Source: a virus
Strand: one strand, 5' to 3'
DNA length: 64,000 bases
Virus record (IMG/VR): IMGVR_UViG_3300042319_002356
Location: 26,768 to 90,767 of that record
Part shown: positions 7,567 to 55,452 of the stretch, piece by piece
Position numbering within the stretch: the stretch's first letter is position 1
Layout: the number at the start of each line of letters is the position of its first letter
The notes under the pieces: model-generated
What the model was told of the DNA's origin: nothing
Seen by the model: only the letters and a program-made list of their open reading frames with translations
Database searches by the model: none
Program-made: the position numbers and the translations under genes

Positions 7567-8325
7567 ATGAACACACCAATTTCTTTTGACAACTTAAAGA
7601 CAATCTGTCCAGCAGCATTCGCAACAAAACCTTCTGACAAGGTTTCAGACAAGTATTCATTCGTTCCAACAGTTGAAGTAATTGAGAACTTCCAAAAAGA
7701 AGGGTGGAATGTGTTTTCAGCACAACAAAGAGGTAGTGGTTCATATGGAAGACATATGATTCGTCTTCGTAACGGTGACCTCCCACAAGTTGGAGACTCT
7801 TTGATTGAAGCAATCATTACGAACTCACACGACGGAACTGCTAAGTTGAATATTAGTTCAGGTTTGTATCGTTTGGTTTGTTCTAACGGTTTGGTAATCC
7901 CACAAGGTGTATTTGAATCAATTCAAGTTTTACACAAGAACATTGAGTTCCAAGACGTTAAAGAAATCAGTAATCAAATCTCTGAAACTTTACCACTCAT
8001 TCAAGGTTCAATGAAGACAATGCAAGAGCGTATCTTGACTTTTGATGAGAAGCGTGATTTCGCAAAAGAAGCGATTGAGTTACGTTGGGAAAACAACAAG
8101 AATGTTAAAAACATTTCTTTGAACGATATGATTATCCCAAAACGTCAAGATGACATGGGTGATGATATGTGGAGAGTATTTAACGTGGTTCAAGAGAAAT
8201 TGGTTCGTGGAGGTTTGATTTACAAAACCGACTCAGGTAGAAATGTCCGCACTCGTCAGTTGACAGATGTGGTAGGTAACACCAAGTTTAACCGTGAATT
8301 GTGGGAGTTGGCATCATCTTATTGA
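7567..8325 (+). CDS. DUF932/DUF945-family protein
   Basis: TNSHDGT, GLYRLVCSNGL and WRVFNVVQE motifs; TATCTTTG promoter upstream. Confidence 0.85.
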   Translation: MNTPISFDNLKTICPAAFATKPSDKVSDKYSFVPTVEVIENFQKEGWNVFSAQQRGSGSYGRHMIRLRNGDLPQVGDSLIEAIITNSHDGTAKLNISSGLYRLVCSNGLVIPQGVFESIQVLHKNIEFQDVKEISNQISETLPLIQGSMKTMQERILTFDEKRDFAKEAIELRWENNKNVKNISLNDMIIPKRQDDMGDDMWRVFNVVQEKLVRGGLIYKTDSGRNVRTRQLTDVVGNTKFNRELWELASSY

Positions 8326-8354
8326 TGCCACCCCTTCACTAAAAAATTAAAATT

Positions 8355-8594
8355 ATGAAAGCAAAGTTAGAATTTGATTTGGATGATGTTGATGATAGAA
8401 TGGCACACTTACGTTGTGTCAAATCAACAGATATGGCGTTGGTTTTGTGGGAAATGTCATTGAATATGCGTAAAAGAGTTACATCGGGTTATGATGAAAA
8501 GGATGACTTTTACAGAGGTGTGGATGCGGTATTTGAAAGATACAATGAGTTAATGCAAGAACATAATTTAGACCCTGAAGAATTAATAAGATGA
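8355..8594 (+). CDS. Hypothetical protein
   Basis: 79 aa ORF. Confidence 0.6.
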   Translation: MKAKLEFDLDDVDDRMAHLRCVKSTDMALVLWEMSLNMRKRVTSGYDEKDDFYRGVDAVFERYNELMQEHNLDPEELIR

Positions 8595-9199
8595 ACATAA
8601 AATTCAAGGATACTTTTTTTGAAAGTTTCAAAAGAATGATTAATCGGGAAAGATGGTATTGGAAAACTTGGGACTTGTTCAGATATGACATCCCAAGATT
8701 TTTCCGTAACCTGTGGTTATTCCGTAAAAACTTATGGAATCACACCTGGTATAATGGTGACAGTTCGGTTTTGCCTTGGGTTAAAACTGCTGTTGATGAT
8801 ATGGCTTGGAGAATTGAAAAATATGGGCACGAGGTTGATGAAAGTCGTTTGAAGAAAGTTGCGAAGATGAGACGATTATCTTATTTGATTGATGTTTGTG
8901 TCAATGACACTTTCATTGAGGAGGCGGAAAAAGAGTTGGGATTTGAGTATGTTTATTACCCATTTGAGTTTGAAGAAATTTCAGGTAGTGAAGATTTATA
9001 CCAATTAAAACAAAATGAAAACCCAACGGACAAAGAGAATAATTCAAAAATTCTTAAACGGTCTCATCAGATTCAAAAAGAATATTGGGAGGAACTATGT
9101 GCAATTATCAAAGGACCTGACTACGATGAATTAAGAAACTCTGAGGAAGGTTGGGATGAAAAATACGATGGAAGTGACCTAAGAGCTTGGTGGGACTAA
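8591..9199 (+). CDS. Hypothetical phage protein
   Basis: 202 aa ORF ending in WWD. Confidence 0.7.
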   Translation: MNIKFKDTFFESFKRMINRERWYWKTWDLFRYDIPRFFRNLWLFRKNLWNHTWYNGDSSVLPWVKTAVDDMAWRIEKYGHEVDESRLKKVAKMRRLSYLIDVCVNDTFIEEAEKELGFEYVYYPFEFEEISGSEDLYQLKQNENPTDKENNSKILKRSHQIQKEYWEELCAIIKGPDYDELRNSEEGWDEKYDGSDLRAWWD

Positions 9200-22324: not shown

Positions 22325-22852
22325 ATGAAAGAATTGACATTTAAAAAGAAAGGGGTGGTTTACACCCCTTTGACATACTGGCAAGTTGATAAAAAAAATA
22401 CAATTGCTATCTATCAGGGAGGTAGAGGTGCTCGTCCCGATTTAGATTTTATTGTGAAACATAAGGAAGAAGGTAAACGGTTACGAACTCCGTCACATAC
22501 TCATTGGATTGTTGATTTGATTACCAAAGCTCAATACGATAAAGGTAGAGTAAAATTATATGTTGAAGATATGATTAAACTTTATGATGAATGCGAACCC
22601 TTCAAAACCGAAGAGGAAAGAAACTCATATAAGTTACAGTGTCCCACAAAAATGTGGTTTGACCATATTATGTTAGAGGATAGAGGATATTATCCATTAC
22701 AGGTTTTAACCACATTTATTGAGTTATTCTCCAAATGTGAAAAACAAACACCAGATGCGTTTATGTTCAGAAACCTATTGGTATTGGTTAAAGAATACTG
22801 TGAGGGTAAGAAAGATTTTTACCAAATTGTAGGATATTCTAAAAGGGTATAA
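22325..22852 (+). CDS. Hypothetical protein
   Basis: 175 aa ORF. Confidence 0.65.
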   Translation: MKELTFKKKGVVYTPLTYWQVDKKNTIAIYQGGRGARPDLDFIVKHKEEGKRLRTPSHTHWIVDLITKAQYDKGRVKLYVEDMIKLYDECEPFKTEEERNSYKLQCPTKMWFDHIMLEDRGYYPLQVLTTFIELFSKCEKQTPDAFMFRNLLVLVKEYCEGKKDFYQIVGYSKRV

Positions 22853-49521: not shown

Positions 49522-49575
49522 TAATATAAACCCCTCCAAGTGAGGGGTTTTGTTTTTGTAATATATTTATTACAT

Positions 49576-50682
49576 ATGAAGAAGATAGTTAAATTAACTG
49601 AATCAGATTTGGTTAAGATTGTTAAAAGAGTTATAAACGAACAATCAGAACAATCAAAAAAATTATATACATCTTGGGCTAATAAAAAAAGTGGAAATCC
49701 TGAAATGGCAATGTCCATTATGGATGACGTGTTAAAATTCCAAAGGTCATTACCTATGAGGGATTTTGCAAAATATTCTTCATATGAACAGTTAAAGAAA
49801 GATTTGGATAAGGTTATTGGTGACAGGAAAGAAAAAGATGCTACAAAGGTATATGAGGATAAGGACTTGTTAATTATTCAGGCCAATACTTGGGAGGCAA
49901 GTTGTAAGTATGGTGCGGGGACCAAGTGGTGCACTGCCGGTAGAGACACACCTGTGAATTGGGAAAGATATAATAGAACAGGAACTGAGTTCATTTGGAT
50001 TTTTAAGAATAAACCAAATACTGACCCAGGTTATAAGTATTCACATCATATTAAACCCGATGATGGACAAGATTGGTGTGACGCATTAAACAACTGTAGG
50101 GTTGAATTAAGCGATAAATCATACCCAAAGCAACACCCAAAGTATGACGAGATTATTGAAAAGTTAAAATCAATCCATAATGAAAGAAATATTGTGGACC
50201 CAGATAGAGAAAGGAAACTCATTGATAAATTAATTTATACTTGGATTGATAACCATCAGGATGAACTTGAGGCAATGTATTTAAAAGATTTTAATCCTAA
50301 TAAACTTTGGAAGAGTATTTGGAGTGAAACTTTAATGGATGGTGGATGGGAGTATGATTATGAAGATGTTGACCCTGATGAACTTGATAATATCCTTGGT
50401 GACCTTTCCAGAAATATCCCACCGTATTATGGTAATGGTGATATTGAAGTAAGTAATGTTGATTTCTTCTATGATGTTAAATCAGGTATCGGCAGTTATA
50501 TGCATAAGAAACAGATGGCGTTTACTTCTGAGAATTTGGAACGAATTATTAATACTATAGATGTAGATATGATAGCTACAAATAATTTTTTTGATAGTGT
50601 GGATGAAGAAATTGCAGAACGGATGAAAGAAACGGCTTACGAAATGATAAATGATGAACTCAGAGATAGATTGGGTATTTAA
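49576..50682 (+). CDS. Hypothetical protein (WCTA domain) with an LTESDL leader
   Basis: Starts MKKIVKLTESDLVKIVKRVINEQ; ASCKYGAGTKWCTA. Confidence 0.75.
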   Translation: MKKIVKLTESDLVKIVKRVINEQSEQSKKLYTSWANKKSGNPEMAMSIMDDVLKFQRSLPMRDFAKYSSYEQLKKDLDKVIGDRKEKDATKVYEDKDLLIIQANTWEASCKYGAGTKWCTAGRDTPVNWERYNRTGTEFIWIFKNKPNTDPGYKYSHHIKPDDGQDWCDALNNCRVELSDKSYPKQHPKYDEIIEKLKSIHNERNIVDPDRERKLIDKLIYTWIDNHQDELEAMYLKDFNPNKLWKSIWSETLMDGGWEYDYEDVDPDELDNILGDLSRNIPPYYGNGDIEVSNVDFFYDVKSGIGSYMHKKQMAFTSENLERIINTIDVDMIATNNFFDSVDEEIAERMKETAYEMINDELRDRLGI

Positions 50683-50703: not shown

Positions 50704-51012
50704 ATGAAATACCTAATCACCGAATCACAAATTGATAAAGTAATTTTTAAGTATCTTAATCATCAGGACTTCATTCAGATTGATAAAGGTGACAAAATAT
50801 ATTTTGTTAATTCAGATGACGATGAATACGCTCAGATTAGATATGATGAAGATGATGGTGAATGTTTTATTTATATTGGTTTGATTGAAGAAATTTCGTC
50901 TTTCTTTTCTTTACAAAGCTCTGATTCTAAGGAAGTTATTGGTAGATGGGTTGAGAATACCCTACAAATAATGGTTGAATACACCACTCCATCTACAGAA
51001 ATTTGGATGTAA
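50704..51012 (+). CDS. MKYLITESQ-family small protein, copy 1
   Basis: Paralogous to 54223 and 54573. Confidence 0.8.
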   Translation: MKYLITESQIDKVIFKYLNHQDFIQIDKGDKIYFVNSDDDEYAQIRYDEDDGECFIYIGLIEEISSFFSLQSSDSKEVIGRWVENTLQIMVEYTTPSTEIWM

Positions 51013-51036
51013 GTGGGTTGAGAATACCCTACAATT
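50950..51036. CRISPR. CRISPR-like repeat-spacer-partial repeat unit 1
   Basis: GTTGAGAATACCCTACAA at 50950 and 51017 (period 67). Confidence 0.5.
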
Positions 51037-51178
51037 AATCTTTACACAAAAACAAATTACCTTATAATTATTAATGAAACCTTGTTGCTGAGGTCCACCT
51101 GTCCTTTGAGACAGTTGAGTTGGAGAAATACCAACAAAGTGGGGTTCAATAAACATAAACAATAAAATAAGGTAAAAA

Positions 51179-51988
51179 ATGTATTACAAATCATTTAAAA
51201 AGAACCCTGCTGCGTTCATTACGGTAGGGAAACAACGACTAAAACAAAATGGAAGTGTCGTTTATCTAAAAGACGGGGATGAATTTGAAGTTGAAATCTT
51301 CAACCCTCAACAAAATTCAGTTTTAGCAAAACTTAAAATTAACGGAAACTACATCGGTGGTGGTGGAGTTGTATTAAAACCAGGTCAAAGGGTTTTCCTT
51401 GAAAGGTATTTGGATGAGGCGAGAAAGTTCAAGTTTGAAACCTATGAGGTTAATGCCAAATCCAAAGAGGTGCAGGAAGCAATCAAAAACAACGGAGTTG
51501 TTGAGGTTGAGTTCTATGAGGAGAATCGTTACGGTGGAAGTATAACTTTCACAAATGAACATGGTGATTATGGATATTATGGTATTCGTAACTATGGTAA
51601 TAGTAGGGACATTACCACAGATTTCAAATTATATAATTATAACACCACCACAAGTTCAGGTAATAATCTTTATACCACAAACGCATCTTATAACTTAAAT
51701 AATAATGTTGATTATAATACTTCTCAAAATTTAGGGAAGTCATTATTAACTAACAGGTTTAAAGAAACAGGTCGTGTTGAAAAAGGTGGAAGTTCAAATC
51801 AGGAATTTACATCAGTGAATATGGATTTTAATTCTTACCCATCATCATACTCAACTTGGAGATTAATGCCAATGTCAGAAAAACCAGTTGATGCAAGTGA
51901 GGTGAATGTTCTTTACTGCACCAATTGTGGAAGTAAGAGGAAGAAAGATAACCATAAATTCTGTCCACACTGCGGAACAAAGTTCTAA
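51179..51988 (+). CDS. Hypothetical protein with a C-terminal zinc ribbon
   Basis: CTNC...CPHC. Confidence 0.75.
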   Translation: MYYKSFKKNPAAFITVGKQRLKQNGSVVYLKDGDEFEVEIFNPQQNSVLAKLKINGNYIGGGGVVLKPGQRVFLERYLDEARKFKFETYEVNAKSKEVQEAIKNNGVVEVEFYEENRYGGSITFTNEHGDYGYYGIRNYGNSRDITTDFKLYNYNTTTSSGNNLYTTNASYNLNNNVDYNTSQNLGKSLLTNRFKETGRVEKGGSSNQEFTSVNMDFNSYPSSYSTWRLMPMSEKPVDASEVNVLYCTNCGSKRKKDNHKFCPHCGTKF

Positions 51989-52045
51989 AAATAAATAACA
52001 AGGTTTCACTTAAAGCCCCACCCATAAGGATGGGGTTTTTTATTA

Positions 52046-52786
52046 CTATTGAGTTGATAATAGGTGTAGATGGTTAAAGGCGTCAATGAGCTCGTCACTT
52101 AAATTTGAGTAATCAATATCAAATGTCTTTGGCATCTTTGTGTAAACTGACTCAATATTGTATGGTTCAAAACCAATCTTATACCAACTTCTTTTTTGTC
52201 TCATCCATAGATAGAACAATGCGTAAGCGTTTGACTTTTGGGTGTATTCATCAACACTTACAACAAAGTCCAAACCATATTTTTTAATCTTCGCAACGGT
52301 TCGTTTTTCACAATCCACCTCAACTGCAATGCTTTGTTTGATTTCTTCATCAACGAGATTAAAATCAACATCATCTGAACCTTCAATCCATTTGAAAGTT
52401 TCCTCCAAACCTAATGATTCATTAAATAATGGGTCCCCTTCAAGAAATTGGTCCATATGGGACGCTTCGTGTAATAAGATGAGTAACCATTTATTTAGTT
52501 CTTTCCCTGTTGCACAAGCAAGAACTCGGTTACCTGAATCAAAATACCCATTTGTTTGAGTATCCATACCTGGATATTGAACACCAGGGGTATTAGGAAG
52601 GAACAATTCAATATTATTCTCGGCACATTCCTTCTCCAATTCAGTTATGAAGAAATCAATCTTTGATTTTTGTTCATCAGTTAAATTGGGTTCGTTTATC
52701 TCAATTGATTCACTAATCATTTTTTTAATATTAACTCCCATAATCTCTTGGATTCTACGAGTTTCAGTGATAATTTCTTTTTTCAT
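52046..52786 (-). CDS. Putative zincin metallopeptidase
   Basis: LLHEASH motif with a downstream E; MKKEIITE leader. Confidence 0.65.
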   Translation of the reverse strand: MKKEIITETRRIQEIMGVNIKKMISESIEINEPNLTDEQKSKIDFFITELEKECAENNIELFLPNTPGVQYPGMDTQTNGYFDSGNRVLACATGKELNKWLLILLHEASHMDQFLEGDPLFNESLGLEETFKWIEGSDDVDFNLVDEEIKQSIAVEVDCEKRTVAKIKKYGLDFVVSVDEYTQKSNAYALFYLWMRQKRSWYKIGFEPYNIESVYTKMPKTFDIDYSNLSDELIDAFNHLHLLSTQ

Positions 52787-52883
52787 CTTATCAATAAATA
52801 TTTTATTTAAACGAATATACATCAAATACCTGAAACCACAAAATCAAATTGAAAAAAGACAAAAACTGAAATATTTATTCAGT

Positions 52884-53843
52884 ATGAGAGGTTTAATCCA
52901 ACAAATTTTAAGAGAGGAAGCTGAGGTTAAAGAGATGGGTATTGACATTGGGAAGATAAAAGCATCCCAACCAAAGAACTATCTTGTTAAATCTTTAAAG
53001 AAAAAAGAGAAAGCTTCAAAACTTAAAGAAGAGTCCAAAAAGGATGTTCAGAAGATTAACAAGTTATATGCTCAAATTGTTGATGGATTAACAAATCTTA
53101 AATGGGAGGATATTGAGTTACAAGAATGGCAAAATTTCTTTTATGTGGTATTTCCAAAGAAACTTGAGAAAAAAATGGAAGAATTGAGGAATTTGTATGG
53201 TAACTTATTGGAGTCCCAATATTTCGTTGGATTAAAAGAGGAGACAAAGGTTGCTCAACTTTATGAAGATTTCACAAAATTTGTTGAACCAATTTATATC
53301 TACCTATACCTTGATTATCCAAGAAATAGAACTCACTTCCCAAAAGGATTACCAAAGTCATTCTTGGGATATAATATAGGAGTTAAGATTTATAGAAAAC
53401 TTTTGAATACGGTTAAGTTTATTCAGTCAGAAGAAAATGCTACCAGCGATGTTCAAGAGGTATATAGAAAGTTAATGAAGATGCCCGATGTTAATACCAT
53501 TGTTTATAAAGACCAAACGGTATTGATTGAGGACGGAATACCAAAGAATCAGGTTATTGAAATTGTATCTGATAGCATTTATGAAAGATACTTAAATAAA
53601 CCAAGTATGAAAAAGTTGGTATTAAATAGAAGTATCATTGTCAATACAAAATTATTAAGAATTGTTGGCGAAACCAGATTACTTAATATGATGTATGAAT
53701 ATTATTATTCGGCAAAAGAAGGGAAAAAAGTCCCATTTGAAACATTGGGATATGAAAATGCAATTAGACCCAAAAAAGAAGAGCCTGAAAATGATGATGA
53801 CGATGATTACGAAAGTGAACTTTTTAATAAACGATTTGGATAA
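52884..53843 (+). CDS. Hypothetical protein
   Basis: Starts MRGLIQQILREE after a TATTTAT motif. Confidence 0.7.
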   Translation: MRGLIQQILREEAEVKEMGIDIGKIKASQPKNYLVKSLKKKEKASKLKEESKKDVQKINKLYAQIVDGLTNLKWEDIELQEWQNFFYVVFPKKLEKKMEELRNLYGNLLESQYFVGLKEETKVAQLYEDFTKFVEPIYIYLYLDYPRNRTHFPKGLPKSFLGYNIGVKIYRKLLNTVKFIQSEENATSDVQEVYRKLMKMPDVNTIVYKDQTVLIEDGIPKNQVIEIVSDSIYERYLNKPSMKKLVLNRSIIVNTKLLRIVGETRLLNMMYEYYYSAKEGKKVPFETLGYENAIRPKKEEPENDDDDDYESELFNKRFG

Positions 53844-53849
53844 TAGAAT

Positions 53850-54221
53850 ATGTCAAAAATAATTAAATTAACAGAATCAGACTTGGTTAAGATTGTTAAA
53901 CGAGTTATTGAGGAACAAACAGATAGAGGACCTGTAATTCCAAAAAACTCCATATTGAAAGTTGATGAAGATGTTATTAATCACTTTAGAAAATTCAAAG
54001 TTGATTTTAAAAAAGAAGAAACTCCTGAAGATTTCTTGGGAAAGTTAAACAAAAGTAATGTTGGAATTAATGCATTTCATATAAGCGCAGAAGGATGGAA
54101 ATTCCCAATTCAACCTGTGTTTGTTAATATCCCACTTGAAAATAGTAATGTTAGGTTGAGTTTTGAACCGTTCAATAAAGAACGAGGGATTTATATGTTC
54201 AGGGTTACCAAGTCTTTTTAA
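53850..54221 (+). CDS. Hypothetical protein with an LTESDL leader
   Basis: Starts MSKIIKLTESDLVKIVKRVIEEQ. Confidence 0.7.
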   Translation: MSKIIKLTESDLVKIVKRVIEEQTDRGPVIPKNSILKVDEDVINHFRKFKVDFKKEETPEDFLGKLNKSNVGINAFHISAEGWKFPIQPVFVNIPLENSNVRLSFEPFNKERGIYMFRVTKSF

Positions 54222-54222
54222 T

Positions 54223-54558
54223 ATGAAATATCTAATCACAGAATCTCAAGCGAAAATGGCAGCAACATTTCGCAAACTTGACATGAAGAAATTCATTCAG
54301 ATTGAAAGGGATAACAAAATTTATTTTGTCAAATCAGAGAATGATAAGTATGCTCAAATTAGATATAACAAAGATGATGGATGGTGTCTTATTAATTTTA
54401 ATTTAATTAACGAAATTTCTTCTTGGTTTTCTTTAGAAGAATCTGATTCTAAAGAATTTATCGGAAGGTGGGTTGAGTATACCCTCCAAACGAAGGTCAC
54501 AACCACCGCAAAGTTCGCAAAGATGTGGATGGCATCTGTTGAGAGTCCCTTCAAATAA
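54223..54558 (+). CDS. MKYLITESQ-family small protein, copy 2
   Basis: Paralogous to 50704 and 54573. Confidence 0.8.
   Translation: MKYLITESQAKMAATFRKLDMKKFIQIERDNKIYFVKSENDKYAQIRYNKDDGWCLINFNLINEISSWFSLEESDSKEFIGRWVEYTLQTKVTTTAKFAKMWMASVESPFK
54472..54558. CRISPR. CRISPR-like repeat-spacer-partial repeat unit 2
   Basis: 36-nt GTTGAGTATACCCTCCAAACGAAGGTCACAACCACC, 30-nt spacer, then GTTGAGAGTCCCTTCAAAT at 54538 (period 66). Confidence 0.5.
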
Positions 54559-54572
54559 CATATTTATATTAT

Positions 54573-54950
54573 ATGAAATATCTAATCACAGAATCTCAAG
54601 CGAAAATGGTGGCAACATTTCGCAAACTTGACATGAAGAAATTCATTCAGATTGATAAAGGTGACAAAATATATTTTGTTAAGTCAGAAGATGATGAATA
54701 TGCTAAAATAAGATATGATAAATCAGATGGTCGGTGTTATATTAATTATGGTTTGATTAAAGAAATTTCTTTATTCTTTTCTTTACAAGAGTCTGATTCT
54801 AAAGAAGTTATTGGTGAGTGGGTTGAGAATGGCATCAACGATAGAAACCGACGGACCAATGGAGTTGAGAATACCCTCCAAATGAGGGTCACAAAGACCG
54901 AGAAAATTCCACTTTCATTGAAAGTTGTGTTGAGAATACCCTTCAATTAA
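54573..54950 (+). CDS. MKYLITESQ-family small protein, copy 3
   Basis: Paralog with a 14-codon insertion. Confidence 0.8.
   Translation: MKYLITESQAKMVATFRKLDMKKFIQIDKGDKIYFVKSEDDEYAKIRYDKSDGRCYINYGLIKEISLFFSLQESDSKEVIGEWVENGINDRNRRTNGVENTLQMRVTKTEKIPLSLKVVLRIPFN
54822..54950. CRISPR. CRISPR-like unit 3 (partial repeat, repeat, partial repeat)
   Basis: GTTGAGAAT at 54822; GTTGAGAATACCCTCCAAATGAGGGTCACAAAGACC at 54864; GTTGAGAATACCCTTCAA at 54929. Confidence 0.5.
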
Positions 54951-54992
54951 AAATCAATTGACATTATAGAGTTAATAACCTATACTTGTCAT

Positions 54993-55346
54993 ATGAAAAA
55001 TTATTTAACACTTAAAAATTTAGGTTGGTTACTTACAGTAATTGTAACCTTTATGCTCGGAATTGGCGGATTGTCAAAGATTATGGGAAGTGAGGCCATG
55101 ACCACTAACTTTACTGCAATGAACATGTTACCTTACATGGCTCTTGTTGGAGTAATGGAAGTCGCCGGTGTAATCGCACTTTGTATTCCAAGAACATCTG
55201 TTTATGGGGCATTGGTCCTTTCATCAGTTATGTCAGGAGCAGTTGCGGTTCATATCGCAATGTTTGGCGGAGCGGGTATCTTAGTACCAATCTTCCTTGG
55301 AGCAGCTGCTTGGACAGCACACTGTTTGAGAACTTATTCTAAATAA
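54993..55346 (+). CDS. DoxX-family membrane protein
   Basis: Four TM helices; GLSK, VGVMEVAG and GAVAVH motifs. Confidence 0.8.
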   Translation: MKNYLTLKNLGWLLTVIVTFMLGIGGLSKIMGSEAMTTNFTAMNMLPYMALVGVMEVAGVIALCIPRTSVYGALVLSSVMSGAVAVHIAMFGGAGILVPIFLGAAAWTAHCLRTYSK

Positions 55347-55452
55347 GGGATTACCTTAAAATCCCTTCAAGACGAAGGGATTTTTTATTTTAACAAAGAA
55401 AAATTTGATTTACAAAAATATATGTTATATATTTGTAAAGGATTTGAGGGAA

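Follow-up and report, generated by a model that had tools for sequence, protein, structure and literature searches.

The window analysed here is a stretch of 64,000 nucleotides, bases 26768-90767 of the 90.8-kb viral contig IMGVR_UViG_3300042319_002356 of IMG/VR. It holds three small genes whose products begin MKYLITESQ, and each of these genes ends in a 36-nt repeat, a unique segment of about 30 nt and a truncated second copy of the repeat. [quoted passage not shown] We put the probability of this reading at about 0.6. The unique segments are called spacers below.

The contig has a GC content of about 32%, carries 17 tRNA genes and has nearly all its genes on the + strand, and is therefore taken to be a fragment of a jumbo phage; its completeness according to CheckV is 31%. 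Relatives of the contig reach 294 kb, the size of a genome that is complete (100%). In what follows, G000 is the contig itself, G001 is the complete 294-kb relative, and L-numbers denote fetched loci.

Terminal units of the three genes and of their relatives

The open reading frames (ORFs) 50704-51012, 54223-54558 and 54573-54950 are paralogs, with a DNA identity of 63-82% over 275 nt. At the end of each gene the repeat is followed by 31, 30 and 29 unrelated nucleotides (paralogs 1, 2 and 3, respectively) and then by the first 18-22 nt of the repeat again, with start-to-start periods, from full repeat to partial copy, of 67, 66 and 65. The first-pass annotation, which was made from the letters alone, had described this layout, and its coordinates, periods and paralogy were all reproduced, as was an additional short repeat copy with insert in paralog 3. 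The 18-nt core of the repeat, GTTGAGAATACCCTNCAA, occurs on the + strand at 50950, 51017, 54864 and 54929 without mismatch and at 54472 with one mismatch. Together with a weak match at 22827 (three mismatches) this makes six matches in the window where 0.29 are expected, and none of 100 shuffled sequences reached six. The parts of the three genes are as follows.

50704-51012, + strand: paralog 1, 102 amino acids (aa), with the stop codon within its own spacer
50950-50985, + strand: repeat of paralog 1, degenerate, seven mismatches against the phage consensus, internal hairpin lost
50986-51016, + strand: spacer of paralog 1, 31 nt, the ninth codon being an in-frame TAA
51017-51038, + strand: truncated terminal repeat of paralog 1 (about the first 22 nt), past the stop codon
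54223-54558, + strand: paralog 2, 111 aa, from the ORF list; modelled with AlphaFold (confidence score 84, see below)
54472-54507, + strand: repeat of paralog 2, three mismatches against the consensus
54508-54537, + strand: spacer of paralog 2, 30 nt, in frame and stop-free
54538-54557, + strand: terminal repeat of paralog 2, truncated and degenerate, reading SVESPFK in frame and then a stop codon
54573-54950, + strand: paralog 3, 125 aa, from the ORF list and by paralogy
54822-54863, + strand: 9-nt repeat remnant GTTGAGAAT and 33-nt unique insert of paralog 3, in frame and stop-free
54864-54899, + strand: repeat of paralog 3, the best preserved, two mismatches against the consensus, perfect 6-bp hairpin
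54900-54928, + strand: spacer of paralog 3, 29 nt, stop-free; the frame shifts afterwards to LRIPFN and then a stop codon
54929-54948, + strand: truncated terminal repeat of paralog 3, a copy of the repeat start

The segment 54822-54863 is most simply explained as a former first repeat-spacer unit, the repeat of which has lost 27 nt in frame. Its insert is also found in another protein cluster, P0037, and spacers of 32-33 nt, comparable to the 33-nt insert, are known from arrays of relatives. The MKYLITESQ family has at least 500 homologs, none of which is named. The family protein has no match in INPHARED, no Pfam family and no fold match in the PDB, and a search of the ESM Atlas returned unnamed viral clusters only.

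Arrays of relatives were gathered by scanning IMG/VR and JGI metagenomes with the phage repeat, and the spacer statistics given here refer to 110 unique spacers from 96 distinct arrays. As many as 94 of the 96 arrays begin directly 3' of the TGG (Trp) codon of the family gene. They hold one spacer in 60 cases, two in 17, three in four and four in two, while 13 are without a complete spacer, and the terminal repeat is cut after about 12 nt in 76 of the 96. Each genome has three to nine family genes, each with one to four repeats.

The spacers measure 29 nt in 56 cases, 30 nt in 30 and 31 nt in 15, with nine of 28, 32 or 33 nt. The length is thus near constant among the collected paralogs, 101 of the 110 falling between 29 and 31 nt. 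The spacers are mutually unrelated, which answers a doubt raised in the first-pass annotation, that the segments between repeats might align as ordinary diverged coding sequence. Their GC content is 42%, against about 32% in the phage.

Reading-frame analysis shows the unique segments to serve as the C-termini of the three ORFs of the window. The earlier description of a translated, variable C-terminus is borne out by these three ORFs, which read through into their spacers, and by 120 homologs, in which the tails are hypervariable after WVENTLQM(K/R)VT(N/D)T. Beyond the variable tail the protein continues as LRIPSK or VENT or comes to a stop, as set by a spacer length of 29, 30 or 31 nt.

Comparison of closely similar loci gives an impression of how the arrays turn over. 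L140 and L159 are identical over 250 upstream bases and have the distal spacer in common, while the proximal spacers differ (one versus two) and all the repeats are identical. This pattern is the classic signature of one-ended spacer gain. In G001 the most degenerate repeats are the distal ones. L128 and L142, on the other hand, have the proximal unit in common, while the distal unit differs and has another repeat subtype; this points to recombination between paralogs rather than to one-ended gain. Contigs from public sequencing runs break at the repeats of the window and go on with other spacers, or insert a unit of 26-29 nt between two copies of the repeat. Taken together, the sequences argue that the gene ends are genuine CRISPR-type repeat-spacer units and not diverged coding sequence.

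G001 also contains an array of a second kind (L070:8346-8640). It lies in the terminal part of ORF 8046-8696, a distant member of the family, and its four 36-nt repeats, with an identity to the main repeat of only 47%, code for peptides like VEEILNCKVETT, that is, for the same peptide pattern. Its periods are 66, 63 and 66, entirely in frame. An exact-pattern search of IMG/VR gave no further copy of this array.

Repeat type, translated spacers and spacer sources

A likeness of the repeat to those of type VI-B (Cas13b) systems had been pointed out in the first-pass annotation. One genome per prokaryote species was scanned for the core, with T or A allowed at two positions. The scan returned true period-66 arrays in Bergeyella zoohelcum, Capnocytophaga, Riemerella, Chryseobacterium, Brumimicrobium and others, that of B. 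zoohelcum with a 1224-aa ORF 58 nt away whose score on NF038190, the Cas13b model of NCBIfam, is 839 bits. When the + strand of the phage repeat was aligned globally with six bacterial repeats (including those of Bergeyella, Riemerella, Brumimicrobium, Chryseobacterium and Chitinophagaceae), the scores were 13-16, with 26-29 of 36 positions identical; the opposite orientation gave 3-8. Shuffled repeats reached a best-of-12 score of -4.1 ± 3.1 with a maximum of 7, and the true similarity lies about 6 standard deviations (sd) higher. Scores so specific to one orientation and so far above those of the shuffles show the resemblance to be real; it is the reverse complement of the VI-B CRISPR RNA (crRNA) that the phage + strand matches. 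The likeness holds against arrays adjoining cas13b, on the strand opposite to crRNA.

The phage and VI-B repeats have in common GTTG.GA.TACCCT.CAAA and an internal pyrimidine/purine hairpin. The bacterial arrays of the scan all read GTTGTGA, and the phage version GTTGAGA was present in none of them. In crRNA orientation the hairpin is kept on the minus strand, but the 5' end is GGUG, and the GUUG...CAAC closing stem is paired at three of four positions.

Two further observations were made on the bacterial arrays. In a Brumimicrobium metagenome-assembled genome (L013:2021-5452), a 1142-aa ORF adjoins a VI-B-type array of 23 repeats; it has no match to the NCBIfam Cas13b model or to Pfam, and is possibly a divergent Cas13b. 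The Bergeyella and Capnocytophaga arrays (L027 and L059) also contain longer repeat variants, with periods of about 118-236 nt and the first 19 nt in common, which we take to be the known long direct repeats of VI-B loci.

The first repeat of a unit forms the last 12 conserved codons of the gene, VENTLQMKVTNT. An AlphaFold model of paralog 2, built with 67 homologs, has a predicted local distance difference test score (pLDDT) of 84 and a predicted template modelling score (pTM) of 0.76. The residues encoded by the repeat, 84-95, make up the end of a helix (73-88) and most of a strand (94-98), and the strand extends three residues into the spacer. According to this model, the first repeat contributes to the folded structure of the protein.

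The spacers themselves bear the marks of a reading frame. In the frame of the preceding repeat 86% of them are stop-free, compared to 57 ± 5% for composition shuffles (maximum 71% in 2000), and the stop-free share in the other five frames is 59-74%. The 16 in-frame stops are placed late, with none in spacer codons 1-4, five in codons 5-8 and 11 in codons 9-10, whereas the other two sense frames have 38 and 58 stops, evenly spread. The spacers show no codon-position signal in their composition, their amino-acid make-up is random-like, and in amino-acid property patterns the tails are no different from the other frames. Since stops are depleted while such signals and patterns are absent, selection appears to act against nonsense codons and not for a particular peptide. 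Among the later spacers 27 of 29 are stop-free, although most now lie outside the frame of the gene, which fits the idea that they once stood next to the gene. Of the three spacers that end the paralogs of the window, that of paralog 1 contains an in-frame TAA as its codon 9, and those of paralogs 2 and 3 are free of in-frame stops. Reading frames and model together indicate that the units are translated as protein.

The origin of the spacers was sought in phages and in bacteria. The first 30 spacers, compared with the contig itself and with the loci of relatives including G001, gave self matches and noise only, as did all 110 spacers compared with the 1.24 Mb of fetched loci. The G001 array had no match in four related phage records or in INPHARED, exact 22-mers of three spacers (including those of paralogs 2 and 3) found only themselves in IMG/VR, and the spacer of paralog 1 had no match elsewhere in the phage or its relatives. 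The spacers of the window had no match in 401 Bacteroidia genomes.

Samples of 351-401 Bacteroidia genomes were searched with five stretches that contain 31 spacers. This gave 68 weak matches, three of which are confined to a spacer: one spacer of L128 resembles bacterial aspS (27/29), and one of L126 resembles bacterial ftsA in two genomes (27/29 and 27/30). Three of the 13 matches of at most 31 nt are thus confined to a spacer, against about 0.16 expected by chance (p ~0.01). Since a sparse sample of genomes can detect highly conserved genes only, it is an effect of ascertainment that both are essential genes. With respect to the bacterial mRNA the phage + strand is antisense in the two cases, which with n = 2 is not significant. 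Relatives of one of the genomes with the ftsA near match contained no better match. A 21-nt match in G008 was set aside as borderline, as it falls in a truncated repeat. The spacers are probably captured foreign DNA, derived at least partly from bacterial, probably host, chromosomes, and for most of them we infer a host origin.

Proposed mechanism and competing explanations

No cas gene had been noticed in the window, and searches for Cas13b (protein and NF038190) and Cas1 (PF01867) were likewise negative over the whole 90.8-kb contig and in four related records, one of them complete (G001). No reverse transcriptase (PF00078) was found in the contig or in G001.

We hypothesise that a CRISPR-type integrase inserts prespacers of about 30 bp at the gene-proximal repeat and duplicates the phage-type repeat in doing so. 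Because the phages carry no Cas1, the Cas1-Cas2 of the host would be the most likely agent, and a host type II-C Cas1-Cas2 acting in trans is the obvious candidate, because in Flavobacterium columnare the type II-C module fills a cas1-less VI-B array (36-bp repeat) in trans and also takes up host DNA (Hoikkala et al. 2021, PMC8092290). The spacer would be translated as the C-terminal residues, about 10 in number, and a repeat truncated to 12-22 nt would close the unit. Selection would remove insertions that truncate the protein ahead of its last strand; with early-stop insertions purged, the visible outcome would be a protein family with hypervariable tails, three of which lie in the window. 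Recombination between repeats would keep the arrays short. The first-pass annotation had offered three functions, namely mini-arrays that borrow a host Cas13b, an RNA that counteracts CRISPR, and diversification of a protein tail by a host integrase. The last of these fits best, in view of the structural first repeat and the selection against early stops, although the integrase itself is something that we infer.

A more far-reaching suggestion, which we offer tentatively and at somewhat less than even odds, is that this is a natural protein-diversifying system run on CRISPR adaptation. The phage would offer the 3' end of a multicopy gene as a repeat, an integrase, whether of the host or another, would write random pieces of cellular DNA of about 30 bp into it in frame, so that every phage would have a shifting repertoire of proteins, and the variable C-terminal peptides would be the selected product, for example in escaping or probing host recognition. 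The units might double as RNA guides.

Several points weigh against the proposal of captured DNA written into protein tails. No integrase was identified, and host Cas1-Cas2 is a presumed agent. New units appear on the GTTGAG side of the repeat (towards the gene, base 1), whereas in bacteria both VI-B and II-C arrays gain units at base 36 (PMC8092290), so that the reaction would not be simply the normal one of the host. The modal spacer is 29 nt long, compared to 30 nt in the bacterial arrays fetched. Bacterial near matches exist for two of the 31 spacers only; they are inexact (27/29) and none comes from this window. The repeat of the second array in G001 is so different from the main one, at 47% identity, that a single integrase specificity does not readily account for both. 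The coding role is deduced from the sequence and the model. Parts of the window are present in eight public runs as contigs, which give neither strand nor transcript ends, and the arrays are little covered in the one true metatranscriptome. Finally, a tail may be needed for no more than completing the β-strand, in which case its diversity would be tolerated rather than used.

The units could instead be primarily guide-RNA genes, with antisense transcripts that load host Cas13b against transcripts of the host or of rivals, and with sense translation as a side constraint. The similarity of the repeat is indeed specific to the orientation that makes the minus strand crRNA-like, and on that strand a full repeat follows every spacer, as a Cas13b crRNA needs, the truncated copy being the 3' end of a repeat only. 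The hairpin is stabler on the minus strand (-6.9 versus -2.5 kcal/mol for the consensus; stabler in 58 of 83 repeats), where it contains G.U pairs; on the sense strand these turn into C.A mismatches, as they do in true VI-B repeats. Arrays without cas genes but with host-like repeats are known from huge phages (PMC7162821). Against this, the GUUG/CAAC closing stem of VI-B repeats is imperfect in the phage repeat, and the counts of hairpin pairs fit independent variation, with no covariation. Overlapping divergent sigma-70-like sites (11/12 each) are found at 54958-54992, of which the one on the minus strand, ATGACA-18-TATAAT (54992-54963), points into the array of paralog 3, the one on the + strand being TTGACA-17-TATACT; but promoter-like sites are no commoner than expected from shuffles, the AT-rich motif ATATTTATA after the arrays is a general motif ahead of gene starts, and no Bacteroidota-type TAnnTTTG site faces the arrays. 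A minus-strand crRNA from the spacers resembling aspS and ftsA would have the same sense as the mRNA and be unable to base-pair with it, and no protospacer was found among the phages searched (the contig itself, relatives, INPHARED and IMG/VR). The strong selection against in-frame stops implies that the sense strand is read as protein. On balance, a primary role as guide RNA seems unlikely.

Viral mimicry of repeats is an established strategy against CRISPR (PMC10651486), and the units might be RNA anti-CRISPRs (Racrs), either Racr-like decoys of Cas13b or sense anti-repeats that pair with the VI-B pre-crRNA of the host, the spacers being neutral by-products of the host integrase. The numerous repeat copies per genome would suit such a role, as would the sense RNA, which is 72-80% complementary to VI-B crRNA repeats, and the phage searches, in which no spacer target was found. 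We nevertheless regard it as improbable. Racrs are small RNAs that lie between genes and have promoters of their own; the phage repeats, by contrast, lie inside ORFs, and no array-specific promoter was found. The diverged paralogs conserve the layout of repeat, spacer and truncated repeat, not solitary repeats, and paralog 1 of the window has this layout without the hairpin. The selection on the reading frame would be left unexplained.

An ordinary C-terminal peptide repeat, produced by tandem duplication and divergence and resembling CRISPR by chance, would explain the conserved peptide encoded by the repeat, the second family in G001 (the same peptide pattern from a different DNA repeat, with in-frame periods) and the 8 nt by which the duplicated stretch of paralog 1 extends upstream of the repeat, but it is largely refuted and very hard to credit: periods of 65 and 67 occur no less often than 66, which puts later copies out of frame; the spacers are unrelated, GC-richer than the phage and random-like in amino acids, with no codon-position signal; truncated copies are conserved as DNA in other frames or past the stop codon; the VI-B similarity lies some 6 sd over shuffles; identical genes carry different spacers; and two spacers have near matches in bacterial genes.

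Known systems and neighbouring features

Smargon and colleagues reportedly described, in 2017, type VI-B (Cas13b) arrays of Bacteroidota without cas1 and cas2. The phage arrays resemble VI-B arrays in the 36-nt repeat, the spacers of about 30 nt, the lack of an adaptation gene at the locus and the possible chromosomal sources of spacers. They differ in that the phage is without cas13b, and in that a protein-coding gene encloses the array, which runs on the strand opposite to crRNA and has a coding first repeat. Growth at the GTTG end rather than the base-36 (leader) end, a modal spacer of 29 nt, a terminal repeat cut to about 12-22 nt and an imperfect closing stem are further differences.

Viral mini-arrays are said to have been described by Medvedeva and colleagues in 2019. 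Huge phages carry compact cas-less arrays with host-like repeats, and some of their spacers are directed against host genes (Al-Shayeb et al. 2020, PMC7162821). The present phages share with huge-phage arrays and viral mini-arrays a large genome, short arrays, no Cas1/Cas2 or effector, and repeats like those of the presumed host phylum. The huge-phage arrays are intergenic and presumed to act as RNA, whereas the present ones are fused in frame to an ORF under selection, with many paralogs per genome. No mention of a type VI-like viral array was found in the text of PMC7162821, and a survey of viral repeat units (Camara-Wilpert et al. 2023, PMC10651486) found examples for each of the CRISPR types but type VI. 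Like Racrs, the phage units are a virus-borne mimic of host repeats without cas genes; unlike Racrs, which are non-coding, usually solitary and intergenic, they carry spacers and are read as protein.

Diversity-generating retroelements are phage-borne, limit variation to the C-terminal end of a protein and work by adenine-directed point changes. The present system differs in having no reverse transcriptase in G000 or G001, no template repeat, and a wholesale swap by unrelated DNA of about 30 nt. In the literature searched, neither an in-frame fusion of an array to a gene nor the translation of spacers was found described. Closest comes an engineered reporter of adaptation, in which the expression of a protein is tied to spacer integration (Amlinger et al. 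2017, PMC5583386); it is a laboratory construct that reads out spacer acquisition, whereas the phage case concerns a natural protein tail. VIPR guide arrays (bioRxiv 10.64898/2026.10.15.759431) were also considered, but they are built of GGYNN units and have no relation to these arrays.

CRISPR arrays are viewed as non-coding memory. Here, repeat-spacer machinery appears to write into a viral coding gene, with the inserts kept readable. If the integrase is that of the host, the phage would be exposing its own genes to host spacer acquisition, and phage genomes would hold a record of infected hosts, useful for the host assignment of uncultured jumbo phages. Viral repeat mimicry would extend to type VI, the only type without viral repeat units in the large survey (PMC10651486). 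If the diversity of the tails is functional, it would join the diversity-generating retroelements as a second natural means of targeted protein hypervariation. The junction between gene and repeat is a compact and testable substrate for an integration assay.

A number of other features of the contig may be recorded. The intergenic region 51035-51178, after the array of paralog 1, is conserved nearly base for base in contigs L075, L092, L097 and L103. It can fold into nested hairpins (CCTTGTTG...CAACAAAG and CTGTC...GACAG) and gave no match in Rfam. A small structured RNA is one possibility, the leader of gene 51179 another. A tracrRNA-like anti-repeat (that is, one like a trans-activating crRNA) at G000:25835-25852 was rejected, as it lies inside a 373-aa ORF and is probably due to chance.

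The motif ATATTTATA is found 2-13 nt ahead of the ATG in at least five genes (5314, 33376, 37696, 54561 and 60362), and its reverse complement contains TATAAATA. It is a candidate for a phage promoter or translation-start signal. It was also considered as an antisense promoter of the arrays, and rejected: it precedes unrelated genes too, and so belongs to the start of the next gene.

Directly 3' of the third array is a gene for a DoxX-family membrane protein (54993-55346, Pfam E = 3e-9), followed by a strong terminator-like hairpin at 55358-55384. The sigma-70-like pair at 54958-54992 sits between the array of paralog 3 and this DoxX-like gene (54993).

Neighbouring ORFs at 49573-49640, 53850-53910, 52049-52825 (minus strand) and 52884 start with a shared helix-like motif, (K/I)LTESDLVKIVKRVI(E/N)EQ, or with a related one. 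MKYLITESQ appears to be akin to this motif, and several unrelated small phage proteins seem to have an N-terminal module in common.

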